In this document: one piece after another, positions 18,003 through 48,633 of the stretch
Numbering within the stretch: position 1 is the first letter of the stretch
Layout: each line of letters starts with the position of its first letter
Assembly (NCBI GenBank): GCA_044229265.1
Contig: JBGATK010000001.1
Location: forward strand, 35,776-99,775
DNA length: 64,000 nucleotides
Direction: 5' to 3'
Origin: Minisyncoccia bacterium
Lineage (GTDB): Bacteria; Patescibacteriota; Minisyncoccia; Phycocordibacterales; UBA9973
Translations under genes and position numbers: made by a program
Notes under the pieces: model-generated
Seen by the model: the letters and a program-made list of their open reading frames with translations, nothing else
What the model was told of the DNA's origin: nothing
Databases searched by the model: none

Positions 18003-20309
18003 TTAATATAAAGTTCGCCAAGCATATGTATTTGCAGCATCTTTGGCGCATACTTCTACATTATCTTTTACACCTGTAGCACCCTGTACCACAAAAAACA
18101 TACCCCGAACACTGGCTGTGCATGATGGTTTAGCAGAATTATTATTATTTACGATAACTCCTCCATTAAAAGTATTTTGTGTTATTGCTGTATTACCAAA
18201 AACCATAGAATTACTTGCACTGACTATAGCTCCATTACCAATTGCTGTAGCATTAGTTAAACCACCAGTAGAAACATCCGCACTATAACCAATAGCTGTA
18301 TTGTTTGTTCCAGTAGTATTTGTTAGTAAGGAAAAATAACCAAAAGCTGTGTTATTTGAACCTGTTGTTGCATTTAAAGAACCATTACCAAATGCAGAAT
18401 TATTATTACCAGCAGTATTTAATTGCAAAGCACCTTTTCCAAAAGCACTATTTCTATCGCCATCTAAATTATTTAAAAGAGCTTGATATCCAAAAGCGGA
18501 ATTTTCGAAACCACCTGTATTTACAGCAAGAGCAGTAGAACCCACAGCTGTATTTCTATACCCTACAGTATTGTCTCTAAGAGCCCATTGTCCAAAACCA
18601 GAGTTAGCATCACCTGTAGTATTTGATTGTAAAACTTGATATCCAACAGCAGTATTATTTGCCAATCCAGAATTATTTCCACCGAGAGCATTAATACCTA
18701 CAGCCAAATTTGTTCCTAATTGGTTAGTGCCTTTACCTACAATTACACTACTGATAGATATATTACCCGAAGTATCTACTCTCATTCTCTCAACCCCACT
18801 CGTAGTTATTGCAAAAATATCAGCTCCTGGAGAAAATGTTCCCGTATTTGTATCACCTAAAAATGTCCGAGTTGGAGCACTTGCTGTGCCTAGTGTGGTA
18901 GCTACTGCTCCAGCCACTTCAAACTTTGAAACAAAAGTAGTTCCTACAGGTTGCCCCACACCAACACTTCCATTAACTGGATTTATTACGACATCTCCTT
19001 TCAAAGAACCATTGCTTGTAGAATCTAAAATTAAATCTCCATTTGCAGTAGAATTTCCATTTATTGTAAAACCAGCCATTTGCAATGCTTGTGTAGCTGT
19101 ATGATTTCCTAAATTATCAGCACCGCCACATGTTTGCCATTCAAAAGTTGCACCTGTAGTTTCGTAAGTTAAACAAAATTCATCAGTAGCAGTACCAGAA
19201 ATACTAACCTTTGATACAGTAACAGCGCCATTTAATATTTTTGTATTTGAAACAGCATTAACTGCTATTTTGGGATCATCTACAGCAAGAGCTGCTATTT
19301 TTCCATTGGTTATAGACAAAGCATCGACAGTCCAAACTGTGCCAGTACCAGAAACAGTAATGTCTCCTTTATCACCATCTGTAATACCACCATTAGCTGT
19401 AAAAGTAATATTACTATTATTTACATCATGAGTAATGGTAATTCCTGAACCGGCTATCAAACCTTTATATTCCAAACTAAGACCAGTATCATCTAAACCT
19501 AGAACCTTATTAGCACCTCCAAAAACTGCAGCTATATCAGTTTTAGATACACCATCAACAGCTATTTTGTCGCTAGTTATAGAATCTGCAGCTAATTCTG
19601 TATTACCAACCACTCCTGCATCTATATTCCAAACACTACCACTAGAGGAAACAGTGATGTCGCCTTTGTCGCCATCTGTTAGAGAATTTAACACTTGCCA
19701 AGATCCGTCGCCTCGCAAATAATTTGTAACGCCAGGAGTGCCTGTAATAGCAGATGAAAATAATGGTATTCTATTTGTATTAATTTCTTGCACAGGACCA
19801 GCTGAATTACCTAAATTCGCTAAAAATCTATTAGCTCCAACATTTTGAATTTTTGAATAGGTAACAGCCAAAGGATCTATAGTCCAAGTAGCTCCACTAC
19901 CAGAAACAGTAATGTCGCCTTTATCACCATCGGAAACACCTCCGGAACTAACATCCCAAGTTAAATTACCTGCACCATCAGTTTTTAAATATCCATTTGC
20001 AGTTTGGTTTGCAGGAAAAGTATATGTTTCTGTATTTAGAGTAAGTGTTTTGCCTGGAAAGATAGTTACATTACCTTTTAAATCTGAAGTTCCGTCTACT
20101 ACTAATACTGTACCAGAGCGTAGTCCACTCCATGCTACTATTCCTCCGTCTTTTGCTTGAGTAGTGGAGCTTGTGTTTATTGGGGGTTCGGTGTTGCCAA
20201 GAGGTGGAATACCGGACGGTGGAACCCAAGTAGCAAAAGCTTGTAAGCTTATACTAAAAAGTGATATCGCTAAAAATGATTTAAGAAAAATTTTCTTTTT
20301 TAAAGACAT
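18003..20309 (-). CDS. Large secreted surface protein with internal repeats (DGDKGDITVSGSG..WTID three times); paralogue of the next gene
   Basis: 768 aa; signal peptide ...SLQAFA|TWVPP; the N-terminal ~130 aa are near-identical to the 20348-22021 product; G/N/T/S-rich beta-solenoid-like composition. Confidence 0.7.
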   Translation of the reverse strand: MSLKKKIFLKSFLAISLFSISLQAFATWVPPSGIPPLGNTEPPINTSSTTQAKDGGIVAWSGLRSGTVLVVDGTSDLKGNVTIFPGKTLTLNTETYTFPANQTANGYLKTDGAGNLTWDVSSGGVSDGDKGDITVSGSGATWTIDPLAVTYSKIQNVGANRFLANLGNSAGPVQEINTNRIPLFSSAITGTPGVTNYLRGDGSWQVLNSLTDGDKGDITVSSSGSVWNIDAGVVGNTELAADSITSDKIAVDGVSKTDIAAVFGGANKVLGLDDTGLSLEYKGLIAGSGITITHDVNNSNITFTANGGITDGDKGDITVSGTGTVWTVDALSITNGKIAALAVDDPKIAVNAVSNTKILNGAVTVSKVSISGTATDEFCLTYETTGATFEWQTCGGADNLGNHTATQALQMAGFTINGNSTANGDLILDSTSNGSLKGDVVINPVNGSVGVGQPVGTTFVSKFEVAGAVATTLGTASAPTRTFLGDTNTGTFSPGADIFAITTSGVERMRVDTSGNISISSVIVGKGTNQLGTNLAVGINALGGNNSGLANNTAVGYQVLQSNTTGDANSGFGQWALRDNTVGYRNTAVGSTALAVNTGGFENSAFGYQALLNNLDGDRNSAFGKGALQLNTAGNNNSAFGNGSLNATTGSNNTAFGYFSLLTNTTGTNNTAIGYSADVSTGGLTNATAIGNGAIVSASNSMVFGNTAITQNTFNGGVIVNNNNSAKPSCTASVRGMFFVVQGATGVKDNVEVCAKDAANTYAWRTLY
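19874..20198. repeat. ~325-bp near-identical tract, copy 1 (within the 5' part of the 768-aa gene)
   Basis: Matches 21583-21907 with about 4 mismatches when read directly. The ORF track shows identical 82-aa shadow ORFs in both places. Confidence 0.85.
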
Positions 20310-20347: not shown

Positions 20348-22021
20348 TTATTTTATCTTTGCTTCGAGGATTTCTAAACGCCTACGCAAATCTTCATTTT
20401 CTTTTTTTAGTTCATTAATTTGAGCTTCATGTTTTTGAGTTTCTTTAAGTAGCAATACTGACAACATTGGATATTTAACAGAATCTGGGATTAGTAAATC
20501 TCTTGTGCTACCGGCAATTACATTCTTCTCTGGAATATAGTCCACCAAAGCAGGCACAACTTTATCTACATCTTCGGCTATAAGACCAAAATACCTAAGT
20601 CCATCACTTTTTGAAGTATAAGAAACTGGTTTCAAATCATAAATTTTTGAAGTATCTATTTCTAAATCCGCGACATCTTTTTTATATCTTATAGAAGAAG
20701 TTGAGCGAAGTAATTTACTAGTACCTGTATCATAATACGCATTTGCAGCATTTGCTGTCGTTCCAATACTTCCAAATGAAGGATTGGTTAGTGTTTTCCC
20801 CGATAGAGTTTGAGTGCCTGTTGTATCTACTGGGGTAAAAGTAGTCCACCCTGTACCTGAATTAACTCTACGTAAAGCATCATTATTACCAGGGCATTTC
20901 TCTACAAGAATACCTGTAGTTTCGGCAGCCAACATACAACCTCCGGTGACGCTTGATACTCCAGTACCTCCTTTACCTACAGGTAAAATACCCGCAACCT
21001 CAGTCGTAGCTAGGTCAACTTGAGCTGTAGTTCCACCACCAGTAGCAAATATGTAATTATTAGCAGTTATAACACCAGCACCAGTTGGACCCAACGTACC
21101 TGAGGTCAGTAGTGCTACTGTATTTGTACCTGTTGTAACACTCGCAAATGATACTGACCCTCCACCTCCAGATGTTCCACAAGAAAAAGTATTTGTAGCA
21201 ATAACATAATTTAAATGATTTCCTCCAGAATCAGGACAATTTAAAAGTGCTTTTGCTTCCCAAGCAGAACCATTTGAAACAAGTAGGGTATCGTCAACAG
21301 CACTTGAAAGGCCTGTGCCACCTTTGGCAAAAGGCACGACATTGTTATAAGTAGTAGAGAGTCCGGTAGAAGTAACGTCCCCAGTTAAGTTTCCCATAGT
21401 AGGTGTTCCCCAAGTATTATCGCCTCGCAAAAAAGTAGTAGAATCTTTTGTGCCAGTAGCTGAGAGCTTTGTAGTCGCTACTATAGTAGCATCAGTAATT
21501 TTTATATTAGTTATTGCATTGTCTGCAATTTTTGAATTTCCTACTGCATTGTCTACAATCTTTCCTGTTGTAATAGTAAGTGGGTCTATAGTCCAAGTAG
21601 CTCCACTGCCAGTAACAGTAATGTCGCCTTTATCACCATCAGAAACACCTCCGGAACTAACATCCCAAGTTAAATTTCCTGCACCATCAGTTTTTAAATA
21701 TCCATTTGCAGTTTGGTTTGCAGGAAAAGTATATGTTTCTGTATTTAGAGTAAGTGTTTTGCCTGGAAAGATAGTTACATTACCTTTTAAATCTGAAGTT
21801 CCGTCTACTACTAATACTGTACCAGAGCGTAGTCCACTCCATGCTACTATTCCTCCGTCTTTTGCTTGAGTAGTGGAGCTTGTGTTTATTGGGGGTTCGG
21901 TGTTGCCTCCTGTTGGAGGAGTGCCTATTGGAGGCACCCACACTGCAAATGCTTGCAAAGCTATTGCAAAGGCTGTGAGGACGAAAACAGATTGAAGAAA
22001 AATTTTTGTTTTATAAGTCAT
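20348..22021 (-). CDS. Tail-fibre-like surface protein with a C-terminal intramolecular chaperone auto-processing (peptidase S74-like) domain
   Basis: 557 aa; signal peptide ...LQAFA|VWVPP; C-terminus RSTSSIRYKKDVADLEIDTSKIYDLKPVSYTSKSDGLRYFGLIAEDVDKVVPALV...YPMLSVLLLKETQKHEAQINELKKENEDLRRRLEILE matches the endosialidase/tail-fibre chaperone domain pattern. Confidence 0.7.
   Translation of the reverse strand: MTYKTKIFLQSVFVLTAFAIALQAFAVWVPPIGTPPTGGNTEPPINTSSTTQAKDGGIVAWSGLRSGTVLVVDGTSDLKGNVTIFPGKTLTLNTETYTFPANQTANGYLKTDGAGNLTWDVSSGGVSDGDKGDITVTGSGATWTIDPLTITTGKIVDNAVGNSKIADNAITNIKITDATIVATTKLSATGTKDSTTFLRGDNTWGTPTMGNLTGDVTSTGLSTTYNNVVPFAKGGTGLSSAVDDTLLVSNGSAWEAKALLNCPDSGGNHLNYVIATNTFSCGTSGGGGSVSFASVTTGTNTVALLTSGTLGPTGAGVITANNYIFATGGGTTAQVDLATTEVAGILPVGKGGTGVSSVTGGCMLAAETTGILVEKCPGNNDALRRVNSGTGWTTFTPVDTTGTQTLSGKTLTNPSFGSIGTTANAANAYYDTGTSKLLRSTSSIRYKKDVADLEIDTSKIYDLKPVSYTSKSDGLRYFGLIAEDVDKVVPALVDYIPEKNVIAGSTRDLLIPDSVKYPMLSVLLLKETQKHEAQINELKKENEDLRRRLEILEAKIK
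21583..21907. repeat. ~325-bp near-identical tract, copy 2 (within the 5' part of the 557-aa gene)
   Basis: See copy 1. Confidence 0.85.
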
Positions 22022-35395: not shown

Positions 35396-36940
35396 CTAAG
35401 TATTCAATTTCGGTCTATACTGCAATGCTTCGAGTATGTGATTCTCAGATATATTAGGTACTCCTTCTAAATCCGCAATTGTGCGAGCGAGTTTTATGAC
35501 ACGATGGTAAGCCCTGGCCGAGAGTGCAAACCTCTCTGCAGACTTATCTAAAACATCTCTTACATTTTGAGAAAGGATTGCGAAAGTATCTAAATCTTTG
35601 GCAGACATTTCACTATTGGATTTTATTTTTTTAGAAAAATTTTTAAAACGTTCTTGTTGTATTTTGCGAGCACTCTCTACCCTCTTTTTTATTTCACTAC
35701 TCTTCTCGCCTTCTTCTCCTCCCGAAAGTTTTTTATAATCAACTTGCGATACAGGTACCCACATATCTATACGATCCATTATTGGTCCCGAAAGTTTTCT
35801 TTTATATCTATCGAGATCACTTGGTTTACAAATACAAGCTCGAATTTTTGAATCTAAGTTTCCACAAGGACAAGGGTTCATGGCCGCGACTAAAATAAAA
35901 TTACTTGGAAAAATTGCATTACCTTTTGCACGAGAAATAGAAACTATGTTGTCTTCGAGTGGTTGGCGCAAACTCTCGATAACTCTTTTTTCAAATTCTG
36001 GAAATTCGTCTAGAAAAAGCACTCCGCGGTGTGCCAGTGTAACCTCACCGGGTTTTGGAAAAGTTCCACCACCAATTAGTGAAACGTAAGAAGAGGTATG
36101 GTGTGGGGAGCGAAAGGGTGGATAACAAACTAGCTCACCTTGGTTGGCGCCAACTATAGAATGTATCCCTGTGACTTCTAAAATTTCATCCAGAGATAAA
36201 TTCGGAAGTAATCCTGCGAATGCTCGCGCTAGCATTGTCTTGCCTGTGCCTGGAGGTCCATACATAGCTATGTTATGCCCACCAGCTGCTGCAATTTCAA
36301 GACCTCGTTTTGCACTCTCTTGTCCACGCACTTCAGCAAAGTCTAAATAAATTTTATTTTTATCAAATACAACTTCTATTTTTGGTGCAGGTAATAATTT
36401 TTTGCTATCCATTTTTTCTCTACTCTTTTCTAAATGATCTATAACTTCACGTAAATTTTTAGCGCCAAAAATTTTTATACCACCCACAAGTGATGCTTCG
36501 TAAACATTATCAATAGGTAAAAATATTTCTATGAAACCCACTTCACGTGCTTCAAGCACTATAGGTAAAATTCCTCGCACTGGCCGAAGAGTGCCATCGA
36601 GTCCTAGTTCGCCTATAAATAATTTTCCTTCACTATCAAAATCTATCTCATTGGCTGAGAGTAGAAAACCTAGTGCAATAGCCAAATCAAAAAAAGGTCC
36701 TTCTTTTTTTATATCAGCTGGTGAAAGTGAAACCACGATTTTTTGGTTTAATGATTTTGGAGATTTAAAATCTGAATTCTTGATTGCCGATGAAACACGA
36801 TCCCTTGCTTCGTCTACTGCTTTATCTGGTAAACCCACAACGGAAAACGCATGCAGTCCACGTGACATGTCTACCTCAACAACAACAATATTACCTTTTA
36901 GTAGTGAAACCTGTGCGGAATATACTTTAGCGAATGACAT
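35396..36940 (-). CDS. comM: YifB/ComM-family Mg-chelatase-like AAA+ ATPase
   Basis: 514 aa; Lon-like N-terminal domain, Walker A GPPGTGKT, Mg-chelatase-like C-terminus. Confidence 0.9.
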   Translation of the reverse strand: MSFAKVYSAQVSLLKGNIVVVEVDMSRGLHAFSVVGLPDKAVDEARDRVSSAIKNSDFKSPKSLNQKIVVSLSPADIKKEGPFFDLAIALGFLLSANEIDFDSEGKLFIGELGLDGTLRPVRGILPIVLEAREVGFIEIFLPIDNVYEASLVGGIKIFGAKNLREVIDHLEKSREKMDSKKLLPAPKIEVVFDKNKIYLDFAEVRGQESAKRGLEIAAAGGHNIAMYGPPGTGKTMLARAFAGLLPNLSLDEILEVTGIHSIVGANQGELVCYPPFRSPHHTSSYVSLIGGGTFPKPGEVTLAHRGVLFLDEFPEFEKRVIESLRQPLEDNIVSISRAKGNAIFPSNFILVAAMNPCPCGNLDSKIRACICKPSDLDRYKRKLSGPIMDRIDMWVPVSQVDYKKLSGGEEGEKSSEIKKRVESARKIQQERFKNFSKKIKSNSEMSAKDLDTFAILSQNVRDVLDKSAERFALSARAYHRVIKLARTIADLEGVPNISENHILEALQYRPKLNT

Positions 36941-40267: not shown

Positions 40268-40274
40268 ATTTTTT

Positions 40275-40320
40275 CTTGCCCCGACCTTGCGTCGGGGTTG
40301 TGTCCATACCCGGTATGGAC
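40275..40320. repeat. pnp 5' leader hairpins: cttg ccccgac-cttgc-gtcgggg, then gtccatacc-cgg-tatggac
   Basis: Read directly; first hairpin 40279-40297 (with the cttg prefix, 40275-40297), second 40302-40320; GC-rich structures immediately upstream of the pnp ATG. Confidence 0.5.
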
Positions 40321-40469
40321 ATTAGTTCGTGGACAGACTGGAGTATTGTTTCATACATATATATATGTACAAACACTACTATGTGTCTACCCGCGAACCG
40401 ATTAACTTGTAAAATATCTCAATACTCTTGAAATATGTTTTTATACTAGCATTTTGAAGATTTAAAATC

Positions 40470-40497
40470 AAAAAAAACCTCATACAAATACGAGGTC
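40470..40497 (-). terminator. Intrinsic terminator after the 124-aa gene
   Basis: acctcatacaaatacgaggt preceded on the plus strand by aaaaaaaa. Confidence 0.5.
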
Positions 40498-40521
40498 TTT
40501 CTATAATGACTAATAATGAAT

Positions 40522-40896
40522 TTAGTGAACCATTGATACTGTTCTTCCTTCAATTTTTGATACATAAAGAAAAAATTCAACCCAATCCTCTTTTAGGTAA
40601 CCTAAAAACATGCCTTCATTAAATTCACACCATCTTACACAATCTTTTTCCCACTGTTCTTTAGTGAGTTTACATTTACTTGATCTACCAATTTGGAAAC
40701 GAATAATTCCTAATGACAAACACTCTTTAATCTCTTTTTCCTTAGTATGATCAAAATCTTTGGATTCTAAAAACATTTTGATAATACCTTCTTTAAACCC
40801 TGTGTGATCAGCAAGTGTAGCTAACATTGAAAAGTTTTCAGTACTTATGTTTTGATTTTTAAGTAAAGAAATAGCCATTTCTCTAAAATTTTTCAT
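40522..40896 (-). CDS. Hypothetical protein (Cys-containing)
   Basis: 124 aa ORF; no family recognised; sits between rpsO and pnp. Confidence 0.45.
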   Translation of the reverse strand: MKNFREMAISLLKNQNISTENFSMLATLADHTGFKEGIIKMFLESKDFDHTKEKEIKECLSLGIIRFQIGRSSKCKLTKEQWEKDCVRWCEFNEGMFLGYLKEDWVEFFLYVSKIEGRTVSMVH

Positions 40897-40972
40897 ATCT
40901 GTGTTTTTAATTATAAATTAAACAATATAAATTCCCCCTATTTTTAACACTAAATAAAAAATAATGCAAACT

Positions 40973-41004
40973 AAAAAACCTGAATATGATGTTCAGGTTT
41001 TTTA
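40973..41004. terminator. Bidirectional-looking terminator after the NYN gene
   Basis: aacctgaatatgatgttcaggtt flanked by aaaaa and tttt. Confidence 0.55.
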
Positions 41005-41019
41005 GTTTATTTTTACAAT

Positions 41020-42150: not shown

Positions 42151-43098
42151 ATGAAAAACGAGTTATCTAACCTAAAAAGACAATTTCTAGAATACCTGGA
42201 AATAGAAAAAGGTTCTGCGTTGCGCACTATAGAGAATTATGACCATTATTTAACGAAGATTTTTGAAAATGGGGGTTTTGAAAAAGTAGATGATATCACT
42301 CCTGAAGCAATTCGTGAATATCGCCTCAAATTAAATCGCCAAATTAGTGGCAATAACAAAAAATCTGGCAAAACCACTAGCAAAAAAACTCAAAATTACT
42401 ACATGATAGCTCTGCGCATGTTTTTAAAATACTTAGCCAAGCGAGATATCACTGCTATGCCAGCCGATAAAATAGAACTTGCAAAGATTCCCGAACGTTC
42501 ACTCGACTTAATAACTCCCGCTGAACTCTCGCGCCTACTAAACGCACCTCTGCTTCGTCAAGACTTCGCAGGGCAAGCCAAAAATATAGACATAAAAACA
42601 CTTAGAGATAAAGCAATATTGGAATTACTTTTTTCTACAGGACTTCGTGTTTCCGAACTATGCTCACTGACAAATGACATAGATATAAATACCGAAGAGT
42701 TTGCAATTCGTGGAAAAGGCGGAAAGGTTCGCGTGGTGTTCGTATCCGATGAAGCACGCAGTGCTGTAAAAGCTTACCAAAATGCTCGCAAAGACATGAA
42801 TGATGCGATGTTTGTGCAAGTAGGCAAAGAAATAAAAAGCAAAGAACCTACCCCGCTGACCCGCCGATCAATCGAAAGAATTGTAAAAAGTTATGCTACT
42901 AAAGCTGGTATTTATAAAAAAGTTACCCCGCACGTACTGCGACACTCATTTGCCACTGATCTACTTAGTAATGGTGCGGATATTCGCAGTGTGCAAATAA
43001 TGCTCGGCCACGCTAGTATTTCAACTACTCAAGTTTACACTCACCTTACCGACAAACAACTTCGTGATACACATAAAAAATTCCACGGAAAAAGATAA
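42151..43098 (+). CDS. Tyrosine site-specific recombinase XerC/XerD-like
   Basis: 315 aa; N-terminal SAM-like domain; catalytic region ...RDKAILELLFSTGLRVSEL...HVLRHSFATDLLSNGADIRSVQIMLGHASISTTQVYTH. Confidence 0.85.
   Translation: MKNELSNLKRQFLEYLEIEKGSALRTIENYDHYLTKIFENGGFEKVDDITPEAIREYRLKLNRQISGNNKKSGKTTSKKTQNYYMIALRMFLKYLAKRDITAMPADKIELAKIPERSLDLITPAELSRLLNAPLLRQDFAGQAKNIDIKTLRDKAILELLFSTGLRVSELCSLTNDIDINTEEFAIRGKGGKVRVVFVSDEARSAVKAYQNARKDMNDAMFVQVGKEIKSKEPTPLTRRSIERIVKSYATKAGIYKKVTPHVLRHSFATDLLSNGADIRSVQIMLGHASISTTQVYTHLTDKQLRDTHKKFHGKR
42547..42573 (-). repeat. Degenerate palindromic element copy inside the xerC-like CDS (cctctgc-ttcgtcaagacttc-gcaggg)
   Basis: Core ttcgtcaagacttc against ttcgccaaagcttc at 35370; translates in-frame as PLLRQDFAGQA in a variable loop between the two Xer motifs. 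Confidence 0.4.
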
Positions 43099-43234
43099 TA
43101 AATAAATCCAACTTTTGGTAATAATTTTTTAGAGACATTGCGCAGGCGGACGCGCCGAGCATAGCAAATTTTCAGCAGAAAATTATGTGTGTCGATAAAA
43201 AATTGATTAGCAAAAGTTATGCTATTATTAAAAC

Positions 43235-44020
43235 ATGAAAATCATCAGCTGGAACACAAATGGCCTACGCGCTACTATAAAGCAAGGACACTTTGAACCC
43301 TTATTCAAAAAATACAAACCAGACATAGTGTGTTTCCAAGAAACTAAATCTGAAGAAATTCAAATTCCTGAAAAATACAGAAATTTTCTAGGTTATCATT
43401 CTTATTTCTCACATTCCAAAGAAAGAAAGGGCTACAGCGGCACCGCTATTTATTCTAAAGAAAAACCAATAGAAGTTTTTGAAGGCATGGAGAAAATTCT
43501 CGGAAAAAGTGCAAAAATTTTCGATACCGAAGGGCGTCTCCTGACTGCTCGCTATAAAGATTTTACTCTTATCACTGGATACTATCCAAATGGGGGCCAA
43601 GGTCCACACCGCCTCGAATACAAATTAAAATTTTATGATATGTTTTTGAAATTTATTTTAAAACTCCGCGCTGCTGGCGAAAATGTTATTTTCTGCGGAG
43701 ATGTAAACACTGCGCACGAAGCCATCGACCTCGCCCGCCCAAAAGCCAACGAAGAAAATACTGGCTTCCTCCCCATCGAGCGCGCATGGATTACAAAAGT
43801 CATCAAAAATAATTTCCTCGATGTCTGGCGAGAAATGAACCCAAATAAAAAAGATGTCTATACATACTGGGATCAAAAGACTGCTTCGAGGGAACGCAAT
43901 GTCGGCTGGCGTATAGATTACTTTTTTGCAGACAAGCCCCTGATGAAAAAAATAAAATCTGCTGGAATGCTTAGCGACTACATGGGCTCAGACCACTGCC
44001 CTATCTTGCTTGAACTATAA
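43235..44020 (+). CDS. xth: Exodeoxyribonuclease III / AP endonuclease
   Basis: 261 aa; MKIISWNTNGLRA...DIVCFQETK...SDHCPI are ExoIII/EEP motifs. Confidence 0.9.
   Translation: MKIISWNTNGLRATIKQGHFEPLFKKYKPDIVCFQETKSEEIQIPEKYRNFLGYHSYFSHSKERKGYSGTAIYSKEKPIEVFEGMEKILGKSAKIFDTEGRLLTARYKDFTLITGYYPNGGQGPHRLEYKLKFYDMFLKFILKLRAAGENVIFCGDVNTAHEAIDLARPKANEENTGFLPIERAWITKVIKNNFLDVWREMNPNKKDVYTYWDQKTASRERNVGWRIDYFFADKPLMKKIKSAGMLSDYMGSDHCPILLEL
43940..44004. repeat. xth 3' end segment that is duplicated at 45337-45401
   Basis: 65-bp identical match read directly. Confidence 0.8.
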
Positions 44021-44040
44021 AAATAGCTATACTAAAGAAT

Positions 44041-44931
44041 ATGTACAATAACATAGAGAATCCAAATTCCAACAAACAAGTAAGTAGCCAAGTAATGGAA
44101 TCGACAGAAATAGATTTAGATGAAATAAAAATATCTAAATTAAAATCACAAAAGGAAGACATTTTAAATTCAAATAATTTTTCATCTAAGAAAGAAATCT
44201 TGGGTGGCAATATTGGTGACGCAACTTTTGTATCCATAGAAGGTGACGGTAATGGAGTATTTAAACCACACACTAAATATAATTATGACCCAGAAAGAAA
44301 AATGAATTTTATCAATAGCGAGCGAGCAGCATATTTATTTAGTCAGTTTTTAGGTTTTGACATTGTTCCACTCACAATAGTAAAAAATGTAGAATATCGA
44401 AATACTGAGGATAATGATAATGATGTCATCACCCAAATAGGAAGCTTGCAAGAATTTATAGAAAATGCCGAGGAAGGTCGTGAATGCAACATAGCCGAAA
44501 TTCCTAAATTAGAAATTTTAAAACTTCATATTTTTGATATTATTATTGCCAACGACGATAGGCATGGAGCAAATTTTTTAATTAAAAACAATAAAATTTA
44601 TGCTATTGATAACGGATTAGCCCTAAAAAAAACAGACCTTCTTGATATAAATATTGAAAGTAATAGACCGTTAGTAAATAATGACTACTTAATAAAAATT
44701 TCACAAAATGATGAATTACCTGCTGAAATTACTAATAAAATAAAAGAATTACTAAAATGGGAAAATGGTGTAAAAATTTTAAAGCAACAAATAGAAGAGT
44801 TATTAGGGAAAGAAGTAGCAGAAATATCTATAGAAAGATTAAAAATCTTATCAGATTGCATCAATGAAGAAAATAAATTTGACATAAATAATTTTAAACA
44901 ATCAATTCGTGAATTAAAAAGGAAGTCTTAA
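44041..44931 (+). CDS. PI3/PI4-kinase-like atypical kinase domain protein
   Basis: 296 aa; IFDIIIANDDRHGANFLIKNNKIYAIDNGLAL reproduces the catalytic-loop DRHxxN and the activation-loop IDNG(L) spacing typical of type II PI4-kinase-like catalytic domains. Confidence 0.5.
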   Translation: MYNNIENPNSNKQVSSQVMESTEIDLDEIKISKLKSQKEDILNSNNFSSKKEILGGNIGDATFVSIEGDGNGVFKPHTKYNYDPERKMNFINSERAAYLFSQFLGFDIVPLTIVKNVEYRNTEDNDNDVITQIGSLQEFIENAEEGRECNIAEIPKLEILKLHIFDIIIANDDRHGANFLIKNNKIYAIDNGLALKKTDLLDINIESNRPLVNNDYLIKISQNDELPAEITNKIKELLKWENGVKILKQQIEELLGKEVAEISIERLKILSDCINEENKFDINNFKQSIRELKRKS

Positions 44932-44956
44932 ATAGACACACTAACTAATAAAAAAT

Positions 44957-45217
44957 ATGAAATACGTAGAAATATATAAATTGCAAAATAATGGGGATCA
45001 AAAGGTAGTGTTAAAATGCTTTTTACGTGGAGAAAATGTAGAGTTTGAAGGTGAAGGAGAACAATTAGCAAAAAACTTAATCACTGATGGAATCAAGAAC
45101 TATCTTGAAGAATCCATTGAAGCCTTGTATCCCAAAGATGGCTTAAAATTTCTACAAAACATGATGTATAATTTCACTTCTGGATATTTAAATGCATCTG
45201 ATGTGCTAGAACAATAG
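44957..45217 (+). CDS. Small hypothetical protein
   Basis: 86 aa ORF; no family recognised. Confidence 0.35.
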   Translation: MKYVEIYKLQNNGDQKVVLKCFLRGENVEFEGEGEQLAKNLITDGIKNYLEESIEALYPKDGLKFLQNMMYNFTSGYLNASDVLEQ

Positions 45218-45233
45218 AAACCCAGAAACTCAA

Positions 45234-45326
45234 ATCCTAGCGACAAAAAATAAACTTTTGCTATAATATAAATATGCTTAAATCAACAAGGCTCGATGAA
45301 CTCGCCGACGGTATCTTTGCTATTTT
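45234..45326. repeat. Duplicate of the MscS-3'/DUF1211-5' junction (copy of 46332-46424)
   Basis: 93 bp with one mismatch; includes the TATAAT and ATG of the DUF1211 gene. Confidence 0.8.
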
Positions 45327-45420
45327 AATGACAACTCTGATGAAAAAAATAAAATCTGCTGGAATGCTTAGCGACTACATGGGCTCAGACCACTGCCCTA
45401 TAAGTCTTGAATTAAAATAA
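45274..45420 (+). pseudogene. Chimeric remnant ORF: the first ~22 codons of the DUF1211 gene fused to the last ~26 codons of xth
   Basis: Own translation MLKSTRLDELADGIFAILMTTLMKKIKSAGMLSDYMGSDHCPISLELK; the junction lies in a shared ctgatgaaaaaaataaaatc microhomology. Confidence 0.55.
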
Positions 45421-45429
45421 AATTTAACA

Positions 45430-45478
45430 TTTAGAATTTTTGTGTTATACCCGTACACTTAAATTTGTAAAAAATTAA
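45430..45478 (+). promoter_or_regulatory. Imperfect 17-bp inverted repeat with a 12-nt spacer upstream of the MscS-like gene (candidate operator)
   Basis: tatacccgtacacttaa - atttgtaaaaaa - ttaagtgttggggtata. Confidence 0.25.
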
Positions 45479-45491
45479 GTGTTGGGGTATA

Positions 45492-46352
45492 TTGAAAAAT
45501 ATGGATATTTTTGAATTTTTTGGACAATTTAATACCCACCAAACTACAATACTTTGGGTTTTGTTTGGACTTCTTATCATAGAAGTTTATTTACGCATAG
45601 CCAAAAAGAAACTCAAAGTAAAATATAAATACAATAAAGATAAAGTCGAAGATTTTGAAGACATGGAAAAGATCTGGATTGAGTATTACAAAAAGAATCA
45701 AAATTTATTCGTCATTCGTGTTATCAGTATTTTTATCGCCATAGCGGTAATATTGGTGAGTTTTGATGTAAATGCTTTTAATTTGCTCGCAGTAGTAGCC
45801 GGTGCGACGATAATTATTTTCCGTGATTATATATTTTCTTTTATTACATTTTTCTATATAATTTCTATCTATAAAATCGGTGATGACGTAAAAACAGATA
45901 CAATCTTAGGAGAAATACTACGCATCAATCCCCTGTATGTAGCCATAGCCGGTAAAGATGAAGATGGTGAATACAATGGCAAATTACATCGTGTTCCAAA
46001 TAGTATTTTCATTACTCAAAAAATAGAAGCCCAAGAACTAAAAGCAGATGATTATCGTAGAGTAATGATAACTGCAGTATTTTCAACTGAAAAATTCATG
46101 GATGGTTTTAGTATATGGTTAGACAAAGTAAGAAATTTCTTAGAAGAAACATTGCCAGCTCGCACACTAGAACGTGTAGGACATTTTAAAGGATATCTAG
46201 GTGTAAAATATAAAATTAATTTTGATTATAATGATAAAGGTGATACAGTGGTGCGCATTTCATTCATTGCTCGCCCACCAAAAAATATAGAACTAAAAGA
46301 AAAAATCATAGAATATATTGAAACTCTACGTAATCCTAGCGACAAAAAATAA
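45492..46352 (+). CDS. Mechanosensitive ion channel, MscS family
   Basis: 286 aa; transmembrane helices, then IYKIGDDVKTDTILGEILRINPLYVAIAGKDEDGEYNGKLHRVPNSIF matches the MscS beta-domain pattern (V.IG...G.V..I.LR.T..R..DG....IPNS). Confidence 0.7.
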   Translation: MKNMDIFEFFGQFNTHQTTILWVLFGLLIIEVYLRIAKKKLKVKYKYNKDKVEDFEDMEKIWIEYYKKNQNLFVIRVISIFIAIAVILVSFDVNAFNLLAVVAGATIIIFRDYIFSFITFFYIISIYKIGDDVKTDTILGEILRINPLYVAIAGKDEDGEYNGKLHRVPNSIFITQKIEAQELKADDYRRVMITAVFSTEKFMDGFSIWLDKVRNFLEETLPARTLERVGHFKGYLGVKYKINFDYNDKGDTVVRISFIARPPKNIELKEKIIEYIETLRNPSDKK

Positions 46353-46424
46353 ACTTTTGCTATAATATAAATATGCTCAAATCAACAAGGCTCGATGAAC
46401 TCGCCGACGGTATCTTTGCTATTG
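46332..46424. repeat. Original MscS-3'/DUF1211-5' junction (duplicated at 45234-45326)
   Basis: See 45234-45326. Confidence 0.8.
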
Positions 46425-46999
46425 TGATGACGATACTGGTTTTTGAAATAAAAATTCCAGATGCTCTCGGAGAAATTTCAAATTTTGAACTTTGGAAACA
46501 CTTGGTAAACCTTATTCCTTCTATGCTTTCTTATATACTTTCTTTTGCTTTACTATTTACTTACTGGCGAGCACACCACTTCTTTATATCTGTATATGCA
46601 AAAAATATCGACACTGCCCTTATGAATATAAATGGTTTCTTTTTCATGATCATTGCTCTCATCCCCTTTTCAGCCAGCGTTCTTGGTCAGCACAGTAATA
46701 ATGAACTTTCTATAATTCTTTTTGGTAGCAATATCGTAATCATTGGTCTTACTCTTTATTTTATGCGTAGATATGTACTATACTCACCTCATATTAAAAA
46801 TCCTGAAATAACTCATCGTGAACTTTTTGGATCCACTGTTCGAACCATGGTGCCAGTGATATTCGCGCTCATAGCTATATCACTTTCTTTTTGGAATACG
46901 ACTTTATCACTCGCTCTTTTTACACTAGCGGTAATATTTAATTTACTACCACAAAGCACAACACTAGCCGAAAAATTCTTCCATCATGAAGAAGAATAA
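46373..46999 (+). CDS. DUF1211/TMEM175-like potassium channel family membrane protein
   Basis: 208 aa; RLDELADGIFAIVMTILVFEI is the DUF1211 signature (RxxxFSDGVFAIAxTLLVLE); 6 predicted transmembrane segments; TATAAT sits 8 nt before the ATG. Confidence 0.75.
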   Translation: MLKSTRLDELADGIFAIVMTILVFEIKIPDALGEISNFELWKHLVNLIPSMLSYILSFALLFTYWRAHHFFISVYAKNIDTALMNINGFFFMIIALIPFSASVLGQHSNNELSIILFGSNIVIIGLTLYFMRRYVLYSPHIKNPEITHRELFGSTVRTMVPVIFALIAISLSFWNTTLSLALFTLAVIFNLLPQSTTLAEKFFHHEEE

Positions 47000-47025
47000 C
47001 AAATAACTAAGGCTTTTTTTATTAA

Positions 47026-48633
47026 TTATTTTCTAACTCCGTGCTTGCTATGCAATTTTTCTACCTCAGCTTCTTCAAGCTCTTCTTTTTTTTCTTTAGC
47101 TTTTTCGCCTAGGGCTCGCAGGTCTGCATCAGAAAGTTGCTCTAGTTCCCCTACTCTATTTTTTAAATATTCTATTTCATTCTTTTCTGGATTTTCCAAT
47201 ACTTCTTCTAGTAATGCATTTAATATCCATCCCATTCTCGGCCCCGGCTTCATTTGCATATCTTTCATAAGAAAATTTCCATCAATTTTTAATTGAGATA
47301 CCGATATAGGGTCCCGCAGGCATTCCTCTATCATCGCATGATATTTGCGCAAGCGGTAAGGTGCCTCTTTTTTGGCCATACCTACCCTGTCGCATTCTCG
47401 CACTTTCATTAAAGTCCAAATCGGATGTTCGTAAGAATCATCCGATTTGTCCTGCGTAGCTTTATGCGAAGCAGGACCCTTGTCCTCCGAAGCTTTAGCG
47501 AAGGAGGATACTTTCACAATTATTCGGCGCACTGCAGAAAGAGTGATCTGCTCTGTATCAGAGAAAAACATATGATTCCTCACCAAACTCTCCACCATAT
47601 TTATTTCATCACGAGAAAATTTCATCCGCTCCATTATCTTCTTTGCCATCCGCGCACCCACTACTTCATGACCATAAAATGTATAAGCTTTCTTTTCCCC
47701 CCTCCTGCGAGTTCTCGGCTTGCCTATATCGTGCATAAGGGCAGACATACGAATAACAAACGACCAATTTTTATCTGCCGCGTGGCCGAGTGCCTGAACT
47801 AAGTGTTCAAACACATCATACCTATGTGCACCTCCCTGCTCACAATTTATTCCTTCTTCGAGTTCTGGGATAATATATTTTAATAAACCAAATTTTTGCA
47901 ACATTCCAATTCCAGACATTGGATTATTCGACATAATTATTTTTACAAATTCATCTCTAATTCTTTCTTGCGAAATATTTTTTATCAAATCTGCATTTTT
48001 TACGATACTTGTCATCGTCTCGCCTGATATAGCAAAATCAAGTTCGCAAGCAAAACGAACTGCGCGAAGCATTCGAAGTGCATCCTCATTGAATCTCTCA
48101 TCCGCATTACCTACTGTTCTTATTACTTTGTCCTTTATGTCCTTTATACCCCCAAACATGTCTGTTATGCTTATTTTTTCTTTTGCACTATTAGACATAG
48201 CGAGTGAATTCACTGTAAAATCACGTCTTTTAAGATCATCTTCTATGTTTTGACTAAACCTTACCTCGTCTGGGTGCCTATTATCACTATATTTACCTTC
48301 TAGTCGATACGGAGTAACCTCTATAGTTTCATAAGAAACATCTTCTTCTTGTCCAGATCCGACTTGGACAGATGTTTCAAGTGAAACTTTAGGTATAAAT
48401 ACTGCCACAGTACCAAATTTATTTTCATAAACAGTTTTTTCAAATAAAGATATAATCTGATCTGGTGTAGCATTAGTTGTCAGATCCCAATCCTTTGGTT
48501 TTCTATCTAAAATCAAATCTCTAACACAACCACCAACTAAAAAGGCTGAAAAACCTCCCTGAGAGAGCTTTTCTATCACGATCAATACTTCTTTCGGAAT
48601 GTTTCTTGTGAAATTGTTTGAGTTATTTTCCAT
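47026..48633 (-). CDS. cca: CCA-adding enzyme / poly(A) polymerase-family tRNA nucleotidyltransferase with an HD domain
   Basis: 535 aa; head domain GGCVRDLILDRKPKDWDLTT; HD region HDIGKP; contains a low-complexity insert at residues ~371-393 encoded by the palindromic elements. Confidence 0.85.
   Translation of the reverse strand: MENNSNNFTRNIPKEVLIVIEKLSQGGFSAFLVGGCVRDLILDRKPKDWDLTTNATPDQIISLFEKTVYENKFGTVAVFIPKVSLETSVQVGSGQEEDVSYETIEVTPYRLEGKYSDNRHPDEVRFSQNIEDDLKRRDFTVNSLAMSNSAKEKISITDMFGGIKDIKDKVIRTVGNADERFNEDALRMLRAVRFACELDFAISGETMTSIVKNADLIKNISQERIRDEFVKIIMSNNPMSGIGMLQKFGLLKYIIPELEEGINCEQGGAHRYDVFEHLVQALGHAADKNWSFVIRMSALMHDIGKPRTRRRGEKKAYTFYGHEVVGARMAKKIMERMKFSRDEINMVESLVRNHMFFSDTEQITLSAVRRIIVKVSSFAKASEDKGPASHKATQDKSDDSYEHPIWTLMKVRECDRVGMAKKEAPYRLRKYHAMIEECLRDPISVSQLKIDGNFLMKDMQMKPGPRMGWILNALLEEVLENPEKNEIEYLKNRVGELEQLSDADLRALGEKAKEKKEELEEAEVEKLHSKHGVRK
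47450..47508 (+). repeat. Tandem pair of palindromic elements inside the cca CDS: tcctgc-gtagctttatgcgaa-gcagga, spacer cccttg, tcctcc-gaagctttagcgaa-ggagga
   Basis: Read directly; on the coding (minus) strand it translates in-frame as VKVSSFAKASEDKGPASHKATQD. Confidence 0.7.

Follow-up and report, generated by a model that had tools for sequence, protein, structure and literature searches.

The locus between the exodeoxyribonuclease III gene (xth) and a TMEM175/DUF1211 gene was analysed in a 64,000-nucleotide (nt) stretch of DNA, here called the window, which spans positions 35,776 to 99,775 (forward strand) of contig JBGATK010000001.1 in assembly GCA_044229265.1. [quoted passage not shown] A first-pass annotation of the DNA had described a rearrangement scar here, with a duplicated xth 3′ end fused to a duplicated junction of an MscS-like and the DUF1211 gene, and had read it as a tandem duplication followed by replacement of one copy. 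We confirm the observation and find the interpretation partly supported. The repeats are a genuine recombination scar that added two genes; the scar is mechanistically ordinary, and no dedicated gene-exchange machine is in evidence. Related loci that were compared with the window are on contigs numbered with the letter L (for example, L029), and Logan contigs are k = 31 assemblies. The locus comprises the following features.

43235–44020, + strand: intact xth, encoding a 261-residue protein that ends ...HCPILLEL followed by a stop (TIGR00633, 291 bits).
43940–44004, + strand: repeat X, the last 65 nt of xth common to the sister allele (xth codons 236–257), identical to X′ at 65/65 positions.
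44005–44016, + strand: tail a, the xth 3′ tail allele ATCTTGCTTGAA (ILLE), equal to the xth tail of L031/L032; the resident, L029-type tail is ATAAGT(C/A)TTGAA.
44017–45225, + strand: novel cargo DNA of 28% G+C that aligns to none of L028–L043.
44041–44931, + strand: gene for a PI3/4-kinase-like (HipA-fold) protein of 296 residues (PF00454, 31 bits against a cutoff of 27.1; catalytic DRHxxN and IDNG (DxG) motifs).
44957–45217, + strand: orf86, a small acidic open reading frame (ORF) from the ORF list, which accompanies the kinase-like gene and lies on the same Logan contig.
45233–45324, + strand: repeat Y′, which duplicates 21 nt from the 3′ end of the MscS-like gene together with the promoter and codons 1–17 of TMEM175.
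45274–45420, + strand: chimeric ORF of 48 codons behind the duplicated promoter, with TMEM175-like residues 1–22 fused in frame to xth residues 237–261 (sister-type allele).
45325–45339, + strand: segment b′ and the joint, degenerate TMEM175 codons 18–22 ending in the shared CTG.
45337–45401, + strand: repeat X′, where the 3′ end of xth occurs a second time, identical to X at 65/65 positions.
45402–45449, + strand: tail a′ (ISLELK and a stop) with the resident xth–MscS spacer, matching L029 (ISIEIK and a stop; identical spacer).
45501–46352, + strand: the resident MscS-like channel gene, 283 codons from the ATG used by homologs (29 homologs; fold match).
46332–46423, + strand: repeat Y, the resident sequence from the 3′ end of the MscS-like gene through the promoter into the start of TMEM175.
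46373–46999, + strand: intact TMEM175/DUF1211 gene (PF06736, 76.6 bits).

X′ is, as had been reported, a 65-bp exact copy of the xth 3′ end; the length is exact, as the neighbouring bases differ at both ends. Y′ and Y are 92 nt long and differ at one position (45279 T versus 46378 C), and the copy does include the TG-preceded TATAAT (−10) and the ATG of the TMEM175 gene together with codons 1–17. The span given in the first-pass annotation needs correction: Y′ begins at 45233 rather than 45234, and the earlier end at 45326 lies two bases too far. Beyond 45324, five more mismatches follow within 12 nt (45325, 45327, 45333, 45335 and 45336), immediately before the joint, and the earlier end includes the first of them. 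That at least five of the six Y′/Y differences should fall in the last 15 of 107 nt has a probability of P = 1.6e-4. In ten shuffled replicates of the window the longest exact repeats were 15–19 nt, so the X and Y repeats are not chance matches.

Y′ and X′ meet head-to-tail at 45337–45339, where TMEM175 codon 22 leads into xth codon 236. The microhomology at this joint had been put at 20 nt, which is an overstatement: only CTG (Leu; TMEM175 L22 and xth L236) is exact in both parents, and the remainder is imperfect (CTGgtttttgAAATAAAAaT versus CTGatgaaaaAAATAAAAT). The joint is nevertheless a novel head-to-tail one, of the kind left by a tandem duplication or a circular intermediate, and the order X...Y′/X′...Y is what marks a tandem-duplication join point or, equivalently, a circularly permuted fragment integrated by one crossover.

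The 48-codon chimeric ORF proposed earlier is present and passes through the joint in frame at the Leu CTG. Repeat Y holds a promoter-like site, GCGACA-16-TATAAT with a preceding TG and the ATG six bases further, and its duplicate should drive the chimeric ORF, possibly reading on toward the MscS-like gene. An exact-protein look-up returned no record of the chimeric protein in other assemblies; the ORF is probably a by-product, and nothing points to selection on it. Separately, the TMEM175 ATG lies only 6 nt past the extended −10 TGCTATAAT (45262–45276 and 46361–46375), and the MscS-like start in sister strains lies 8–9 nt past TGTGTTATAT (45484–45503); this start-to-−10 spacing suggests that both transcripts may be leaderless.

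The genes on either side of the repeats carry the identities first assigned to them. Those of xth and the TMEM175/DUF1211 gene are solid (scores as listed), and exact-protein look-ups for the two window proteins gave no record. The PI3/4-kinase-like label also holds up: PF00454 is passed by the window protein and by 8/10 of its closest relatives, among 2,005 found in an exhaustive HMMER search, and with the DRHxxN and DxG motifs it points to a predicted PI3/PI4-kinase-like fold. The DDRHGAN and IDNG motifs are kept in one relative, P0031. The same protein scores 45.6 bits against TIGR03843, under the cutoff, and hits phrog_3162 (E = 1e-8), a phage family with no assigned function; its predicted structure, built from two sequences, has a mean confidence (predicted local distance difference test, pLDDT) of 36. 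orf86 has no match in Pfam, NCBIfam or PHROG. For the MscS-like protein, the Pfam score of 16.8 is below the threshold of 20.2 and a profile search against the Protein Data Bank (PDB) gives a weak hit (MSL10, E = 0.007), yet the label is supported by fold: with an AlphaFold2 model built from 23 homologs (pLDDT 78), the 48 best Foldseek PDB hits are all MscS-family channels (E ≤ 1e-6), which fits the pore helix, beta-domain and alpha/beta domain of a predicted MscS-family channel. A PADLOC search for a link to defence gave sub-significant hits only, and a tblastn search of phage genomes found nothing.

Comparison with sister strains places the two added genes. The closest strains (L029, at 94–98% nt identity, L031/L032, L035–L039 and L043) have a single-copy xerC–xth–MscS-like–TMEM175 arrangement, and the kinase-like gene, orf86 and the duplication are absent from all of these contigs; L043, the closest other TMEM175 contig, has the MscS-like gene and a gap of Ns across xth. 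The window corresponds to L029 with an addition of 1,397 bp bounded by X, with 43217–44004 aligning to L029 7156–7943 and 45337–47388 to L029 7879–9888. Up to 44004, xth is 96.6% identical in nt to that of L029, and on the MscS-like side identity is 96.6% to L028 over 45488–47388 and 94.2% to L029 over 45337–47388. G+C content is 28% in the novel cargo, 34.6% in the window and about 39–40% in xerC and xth.

That the two units hold different cargo was correctly seen in the first-pass annotation: they share just the 65 nt and 92 nt, and hold the kinase-like gene with orf86 in unit 1 and the MscS-like gene in unit 2. The sister strains reveal which unit is resident. The tail after X′ and the spacer match L029, so X′, a′ and the MscS-like gene are the resident unit, with the kinase-like gene and orf86 as the newcomers. 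Only the source contig and a Logan contig of one run (SRR28480387) are recorded as carrying the kinase-like gene.

As the structure comes from one contig of a metagenome-assembled genome and one run, we considered whether two strains, or a chromosome and a free 1.4-kb circle, had been merged into one contig by way of the 65-nt and 92-nt repeats. Logan contigs L030 and L033 from that run match the window exactly at 45372–46361 and 43975–45262, each covering one unique segment and reaching 30 nt into the repeat at either end, and so the read graph holds the branches that the contig implies. The contigs break exactly 30 nt into the repeats, so the k = 31 graph alone leaves the linkage of the branches undecided, and the sister-type and merodiploid paths have all k-mers in common. 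Against such an artefact, the b′/X′ joint, with a 3-nt exact overlap, is not something that a de Bruijn assembler can invent and must therefore be in the reads. The 65-nt repeat is spanned by ordinary short reads, and a 1.4-kb circle without a replication gene is implausible as a replicon, though it is the expected excision product of the integrated form. We regard misassembly, a strain mixture or a free circle as improbable.

The edges of the cargo carry alleles from other lineages. Tail a, on the left, is the L031/L032 type, and on the right the T at 45279 in Y′ is the normal allele in L035/L036/L039. Both edges thus bear other-lineage markers. Together with the retained TMEM175 promoter and the final 21 nt of an MscS-like gene, they point to an insert from a second haplotype of the same locus. 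In that donor haplotype, the kinase-like gene and orf86 would earlier have taken the place of the MscS-like gene. X and X′ both contain a private CTGGAATG variant that is absent from L029, L031, L035 and L040, and they are therefore copies of one resident sequence. Y is identical to L029, and a core of about 71 nt is identical in L031/L032 as well, but not in L035. We also considered Y as an ultra-conserved dedicated element and rejected this; despite its identity among L029, L031 and L032, the repeat is diverged in the L035 lineage, at 15–16 positions per 100 nt.

Segment b′, which reads ILMTTL, was tried as a functional donor allele and rejected. None of 115 close TMEM175 homologs carries ILMTTL; they read IVMTILV or IVMTVLV at this position, and the two changed positions are almost invariant. 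Because the differences also cluster at the joint, they point to damage or patchy repair during joint formation. Three of the four informative b′ changes match xth just upstream of X (a comparison by hand; p about 0.1), so that a mismatched-heteroduplex patchwork of both parents is suggested and only suggested.

More widely, the divergence between the window and L029 is a mosaic of 0–1 and 6–80 differences per 100 nt, a sign that homologous exchange among strains is frequent. Within xth, the differences from L029 number 17 at 43222–43404, 0 at 43405–43839 and 10 at 43840–43965, and the segment 43921–43965 mixes L029-like and L035-like alleles, a fine-scale recombination mosaic among co-occurring strains.

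We consider it probable that this is a real scar left by one illegitimate join together with homologous exchange between two haplotypes, whether in one episode or in two steps. As to the route, a single episode that combined homologous exchange with one illegitimate join to second-haplotype DNA is the likeliest, and we favour it tentatively. The starting state would have been a resident xerC–xth–MscS-like–TMEM175 locus like that of the sisters. DNA of the same locus from the second haplotype, probably after DNA uptake, would have been added next to the resident cassette and not in its place. At the left end, homologous recombination would have occurred inside the last 65 nt common to both xth alleles; at the right end, about 22 codons into TMEM175, the incoming DNA would have been joined illegitimately to xth codon 236 at CTG, within a patch of imperfect similarity. 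The predicted product is xth-X-a-kinase-orf86-Y′-b′/X′-a′-MscS-Y-TMEM175 (the slash marks the joint), a topology obtainable by a single crossover with a circularized fragment or by interchromatid integration of imported DNA. Cultivated Patescibacteria show natural competence and integrate DNA by homology, and com genes are conserved across the CPR (PMC10633639).

The route proposed in the first-pass annotation is not better supported than a single episode. It would begin with an in-genome tandem duplication of 1,102 bp (the xth 3′ end, the MscS-like gene and the TMEM175 5′ end) arising through slippage or illegitimate recombination in the CTG/AAATAAAA patch; a-kinase-orf86 would then replace the inside of the first copy by a double homologous crossover with DNA of the kinase haplotype. 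The identity of X and X′, private variant included, and the near-identity of Y′ and Y both follow directly from an in-genome duplication; b′ is again explicable as a junction scar, and tail a and the T at 45279 could be markers from crossovers inside X and Y′. Yet this route takes two rare events, with an unstable 1.1-kb tandem repeat persisting between them, and the plain duplication is in none of 7 sister contigs; the same unsampled kinase haplotype is still required. On balance we think it rather unlikely, while keeping it as a serious competitor.

Several points weigh against the favoured single episode. The donor haplotype, xth–kinase–orf86–TMEM175, was not found in any collection searched, and the joint is known from one assembly and one sample. 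All features bar parsimony fit a tandem duplication with a swap equally well. The b′ changes are only loosely explained, as two of them match neither parent and the resemblance of the informative ones to xth is the marginal one given above. Lastly, competence has been demonstrated for Saccharibacteria, not Nomurabacteria. A scan of the joint and the Y core against JGI metagenomes gave no match. The only other kinase relative with gene context, P0031 (41% identity), adjoins an aminoacyl-tRNA synthetase gene and not xth.

Under either route, the arrangement could be undone by recombination between its repeats. Exchange between X and X′ would bring back the sister-type locus with its xth ending ...HCPISLELK, and exchange between Y′ and Y would leave xth–kinase–orf86 followed by an intact TMEM175. 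Since either event restores intact genes, the present state is an unresolved allele-swap intermediate. The same repeats raise the question of a maintained switch, in which both direct-repeat pairs would be under selection and RecA-dependent deletion and re-duplication would toggle between channel-only, kinase-only and both, as a form of bet-hedging. Both resolution products do restore intact genes and promoters, and RecA-dependent duplication switches are known in other bacteria (PMC9946442). The structure, however, is in a single sample, and the seven sister contigs, which come from other samples, are without exception channel-only; in the L035 lineage Y shows no unusual conservation, and the fused ORF and b′ look accidental. 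A selected switch is accordingly very improbable in our judgement. We hold it to be scarcely less improbable that the locus is a working three-state switch rather than a frozen accident, in which a 1.4-kb or 1.1-kb circle would be excised and re-integrated by RecA through the 65-nt and 92-nt repeats, toggling the three contents. If true, it would be a homology-only way for a genome-reduced, mobile-element-poor Patescibacterium to hold and trade accessory genes at a core-gene junction.

The first-pass annotation had also called this a locus where cargo appears to be exchanged, and had drawn attention to a recombinase gene upstream.

42151–43098, + strand: Xer-type tyrosine recombinase gene (xerC), outside the scar and part of its context (Pfam Phage_integrase, 142 bits; NCBIfam XerD/XerC/XerA, 224–238 bits).

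The first of these ideas is right in that the content of the gap does differ between relatives. The order pnp–NYN–rpsO–xerC–xth–[gap]–TMEM175–[gap]–CCA–yraN is conserved across about 20 relatives. The gap between xth and TMEM175 is empty in five genomes, contains an opposite-strand murI in at least eight (L011, L014 and six that have TMEM175 downstream), holds murI and the MscS-like gene in the L040 lineage, and has the MscS-like gene alone in the closest strains of the window; with the kinase-like gene, orf86 and MscS-like gene of the window itself, this makes at least five states (empty, murI, murI with MscS-like, MscS-like, and kinase with orf86 and MscS-like). What does not hold is a special status for the gap, since by gene-order comparison it appears as one of three variable slots here, and the pnp–NYN and TMEM175–CCA gaps vary just as much. 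The pnp–NYN gap (window 40268–41019 versus L029 2190–5235) contains one 124-residue ORF in the window and a RelB/ParE toxin–antitoxin pair with four ORFs (about 3 kb) in L029, and its size is 0.15–3.3 kb in genus-level relatives. At the TMEM175–CCA gap (window 46999–47026) the genes are adjacent in the window; the gap spans 0–3.9 kb overall, and in relatives extra genes take up 0.1–3.9 kb of it, for example a 199–209-residue ORF in L031 and L040.

The tyrosine recombinase gene 0.8 kb upstream of X, and slot content that varies between genomes, could together indicate a cassette moved by the adjoining XerC-like enzyme, as in an integron or an integrative mobile element exploiting Xer (IMEX), or else by a transposon. 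The evidence nevertheless argues against both. The rpsO–xerC–xth synteny, and with it the position of xerC, is kept in about 20 relatives whatever the slot holds, no inverted-repeat core sites beyond A/T runs occur at the X, Y′, joint or Y boundaries, and no transposase or integrase lies within the insert by Pfam, NCBIfam, PADLOC and PHROG scans. The 65-nt ‘target duplication’ is coding sequence, and at its right end the insert shares homology with the downstream gene, which neither a cassette nor a transposon predicts; the join itself is a 3-nt overlap inside two coding sequences. The cumulative GC-skew minimum is near 50 kb, with the skew negative over most of 1–50 kb and positive from about 50 kb, and so is origin-like rather than terminus- or dif-like. 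Fixed synteny, missing inverted-repeat cores, an insert free of recombinase and an origin-like skew leave the link between the XerC-like gene and the scar unsupported, and we view site-specific or transpositional insertion as the most remote of the explanations weighed here. A dif/terminus connection for xerC was likewise tried and rejected, given the origin-like skew minimum and a search for core-site repeats that found none.

Two structured elements flank genes of the locus.

45450–45491, + strand: 42-nt hairpin insertion in this strain only, directly upstream of the MscS-like start (perfect stem, −21.8 kcal/mol, z = −4.5; single copy in the window).

This hairpin is absent from L029, L031, L035, L036 and L039, and it interrupts the MscS-like upstream region, splitting the promoter-like TGTGTTATATT that is present in all sister strains. 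The second is a structured intergenic element of ~70 nt in the xerC–xth spacer (window 43126–43200, + strand) with the core CGCAGG-CGGACGCGCCGAG ... TCAGCAGA. Copies are found at L040 4250–4333, L031 825–910, L006 8812–8896 (xth–TMEM175) and L011 6355–6440 (NYN–rpsO), and the element is missing in the sister L029, where the spacer is 4 nt. RNAalifold gives 28 pairs, 12 of which keep their pairing through changes on both sides, and the element has no Rfam match; it may be an undescribed small RNA or a mobile hairpin like repetitive extragenic palindromes. Rfam had no match anywhere over 43000–47100. Elsewhere in the window, a 300-nt direct repeat with 97% identity (19861–20160 versus 21570–21869, 1.7 kb apart) has weaker copies at 19297 and 19594 and falls within a set of 95-nt units; these are probably internal repeats of large surface-protein genes.

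The scar offers a natural snapshot of an accessory gene pair entering a tiny, mobile-element-poor CPR genome at a gap between core genes, and only homologous exchange and one illegitimate join are needed for it. Such an unresolved two-allele state is uncommon in metagenome-assembled genomes, where repeats of this kind usually fragment the assembly. The scar agrees with the natural competence recently demonstrated in Patescibacteria, and makes the locus a concrete, PCR-testable place to measure recombination and resolution in an uncultivated lineage.

Set beside known systems, the locus lacks the marks of mobile elements. Unlike a transposon, an insertion sequence (IS) or a miniature inverted-repeat transposable element, it has no transposase, its duplication is 65 nt of coding sequence, and on the right the insert ends in sequence homologous to the downstream gene. 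Unlike a Xer, integron or IMEX cassette, it has no boundary core sites, and the recombinase gene is tied to the core genome and not to the variable element. It resembles the integration hotspots between core genes in that the gap between xth and TMEM175 has five or more content states in the clade, but no integrase, tRNA or mobile element marks the slot in the window, and neighbouring gaps also vary.

The scar also bears comparison with products of homologous and illegitimate recombination. Spontaneous tandem duplications with microhomology join points share the head-to-tail novel joint at a short imperfect repeat, but here the units differ in content and the edges of one unit bear other-lineage alleles. 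Homology-facilitated illegitimate recombination (HFIR), in transformation or conjugation, likewise has one homologous end, as at X, and another at a microhomology, where CTG is within the 3–10 nt range for HFIR (PMC3240628). Classical HFIR, however, usually deletes recipient DNA, of about the size of the insert, whereas the window loses no sister sequence and duplicates 65 nt; a duplicated homologous segment marks a single crossover with a circular molecule (PMC3240628). During transformation, imported DNA can make tandem-duplication merodiploids via interchromatid integration and then dimer resolution (Johnston et al. 2013, PMC3784515), which likewise leaves two versions of a region in tandem. 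Those duplications are 100–900 kb long with long IS-derived repeats at both ends, whereas the unit in the window is about 1.1–1.4 kb and one of its ends is illegitimate (PMC3784515).

A Campbell-type single-crossover integrant, a merodiploid intermediate of allelic exchange, is also comparable: a direct duplication of the crossover segment (65/65 for X) flanks 1,397 bp of incoming DNA, both alleles stand side by side, and a second crossover resolves the structure to either allele. The window differs in being a natural event without a vector backbone, and its putative circle would have formed when an illegitimate 3-nt join closed a 1.4-kb fragment of the homologous locus. The structure is a natural merodiploid-type recombination scar; it presents neither a new mechanism nor a new genetic element, and stands as a further, well-documented example of an already known type of event in a poorly studied lineage.

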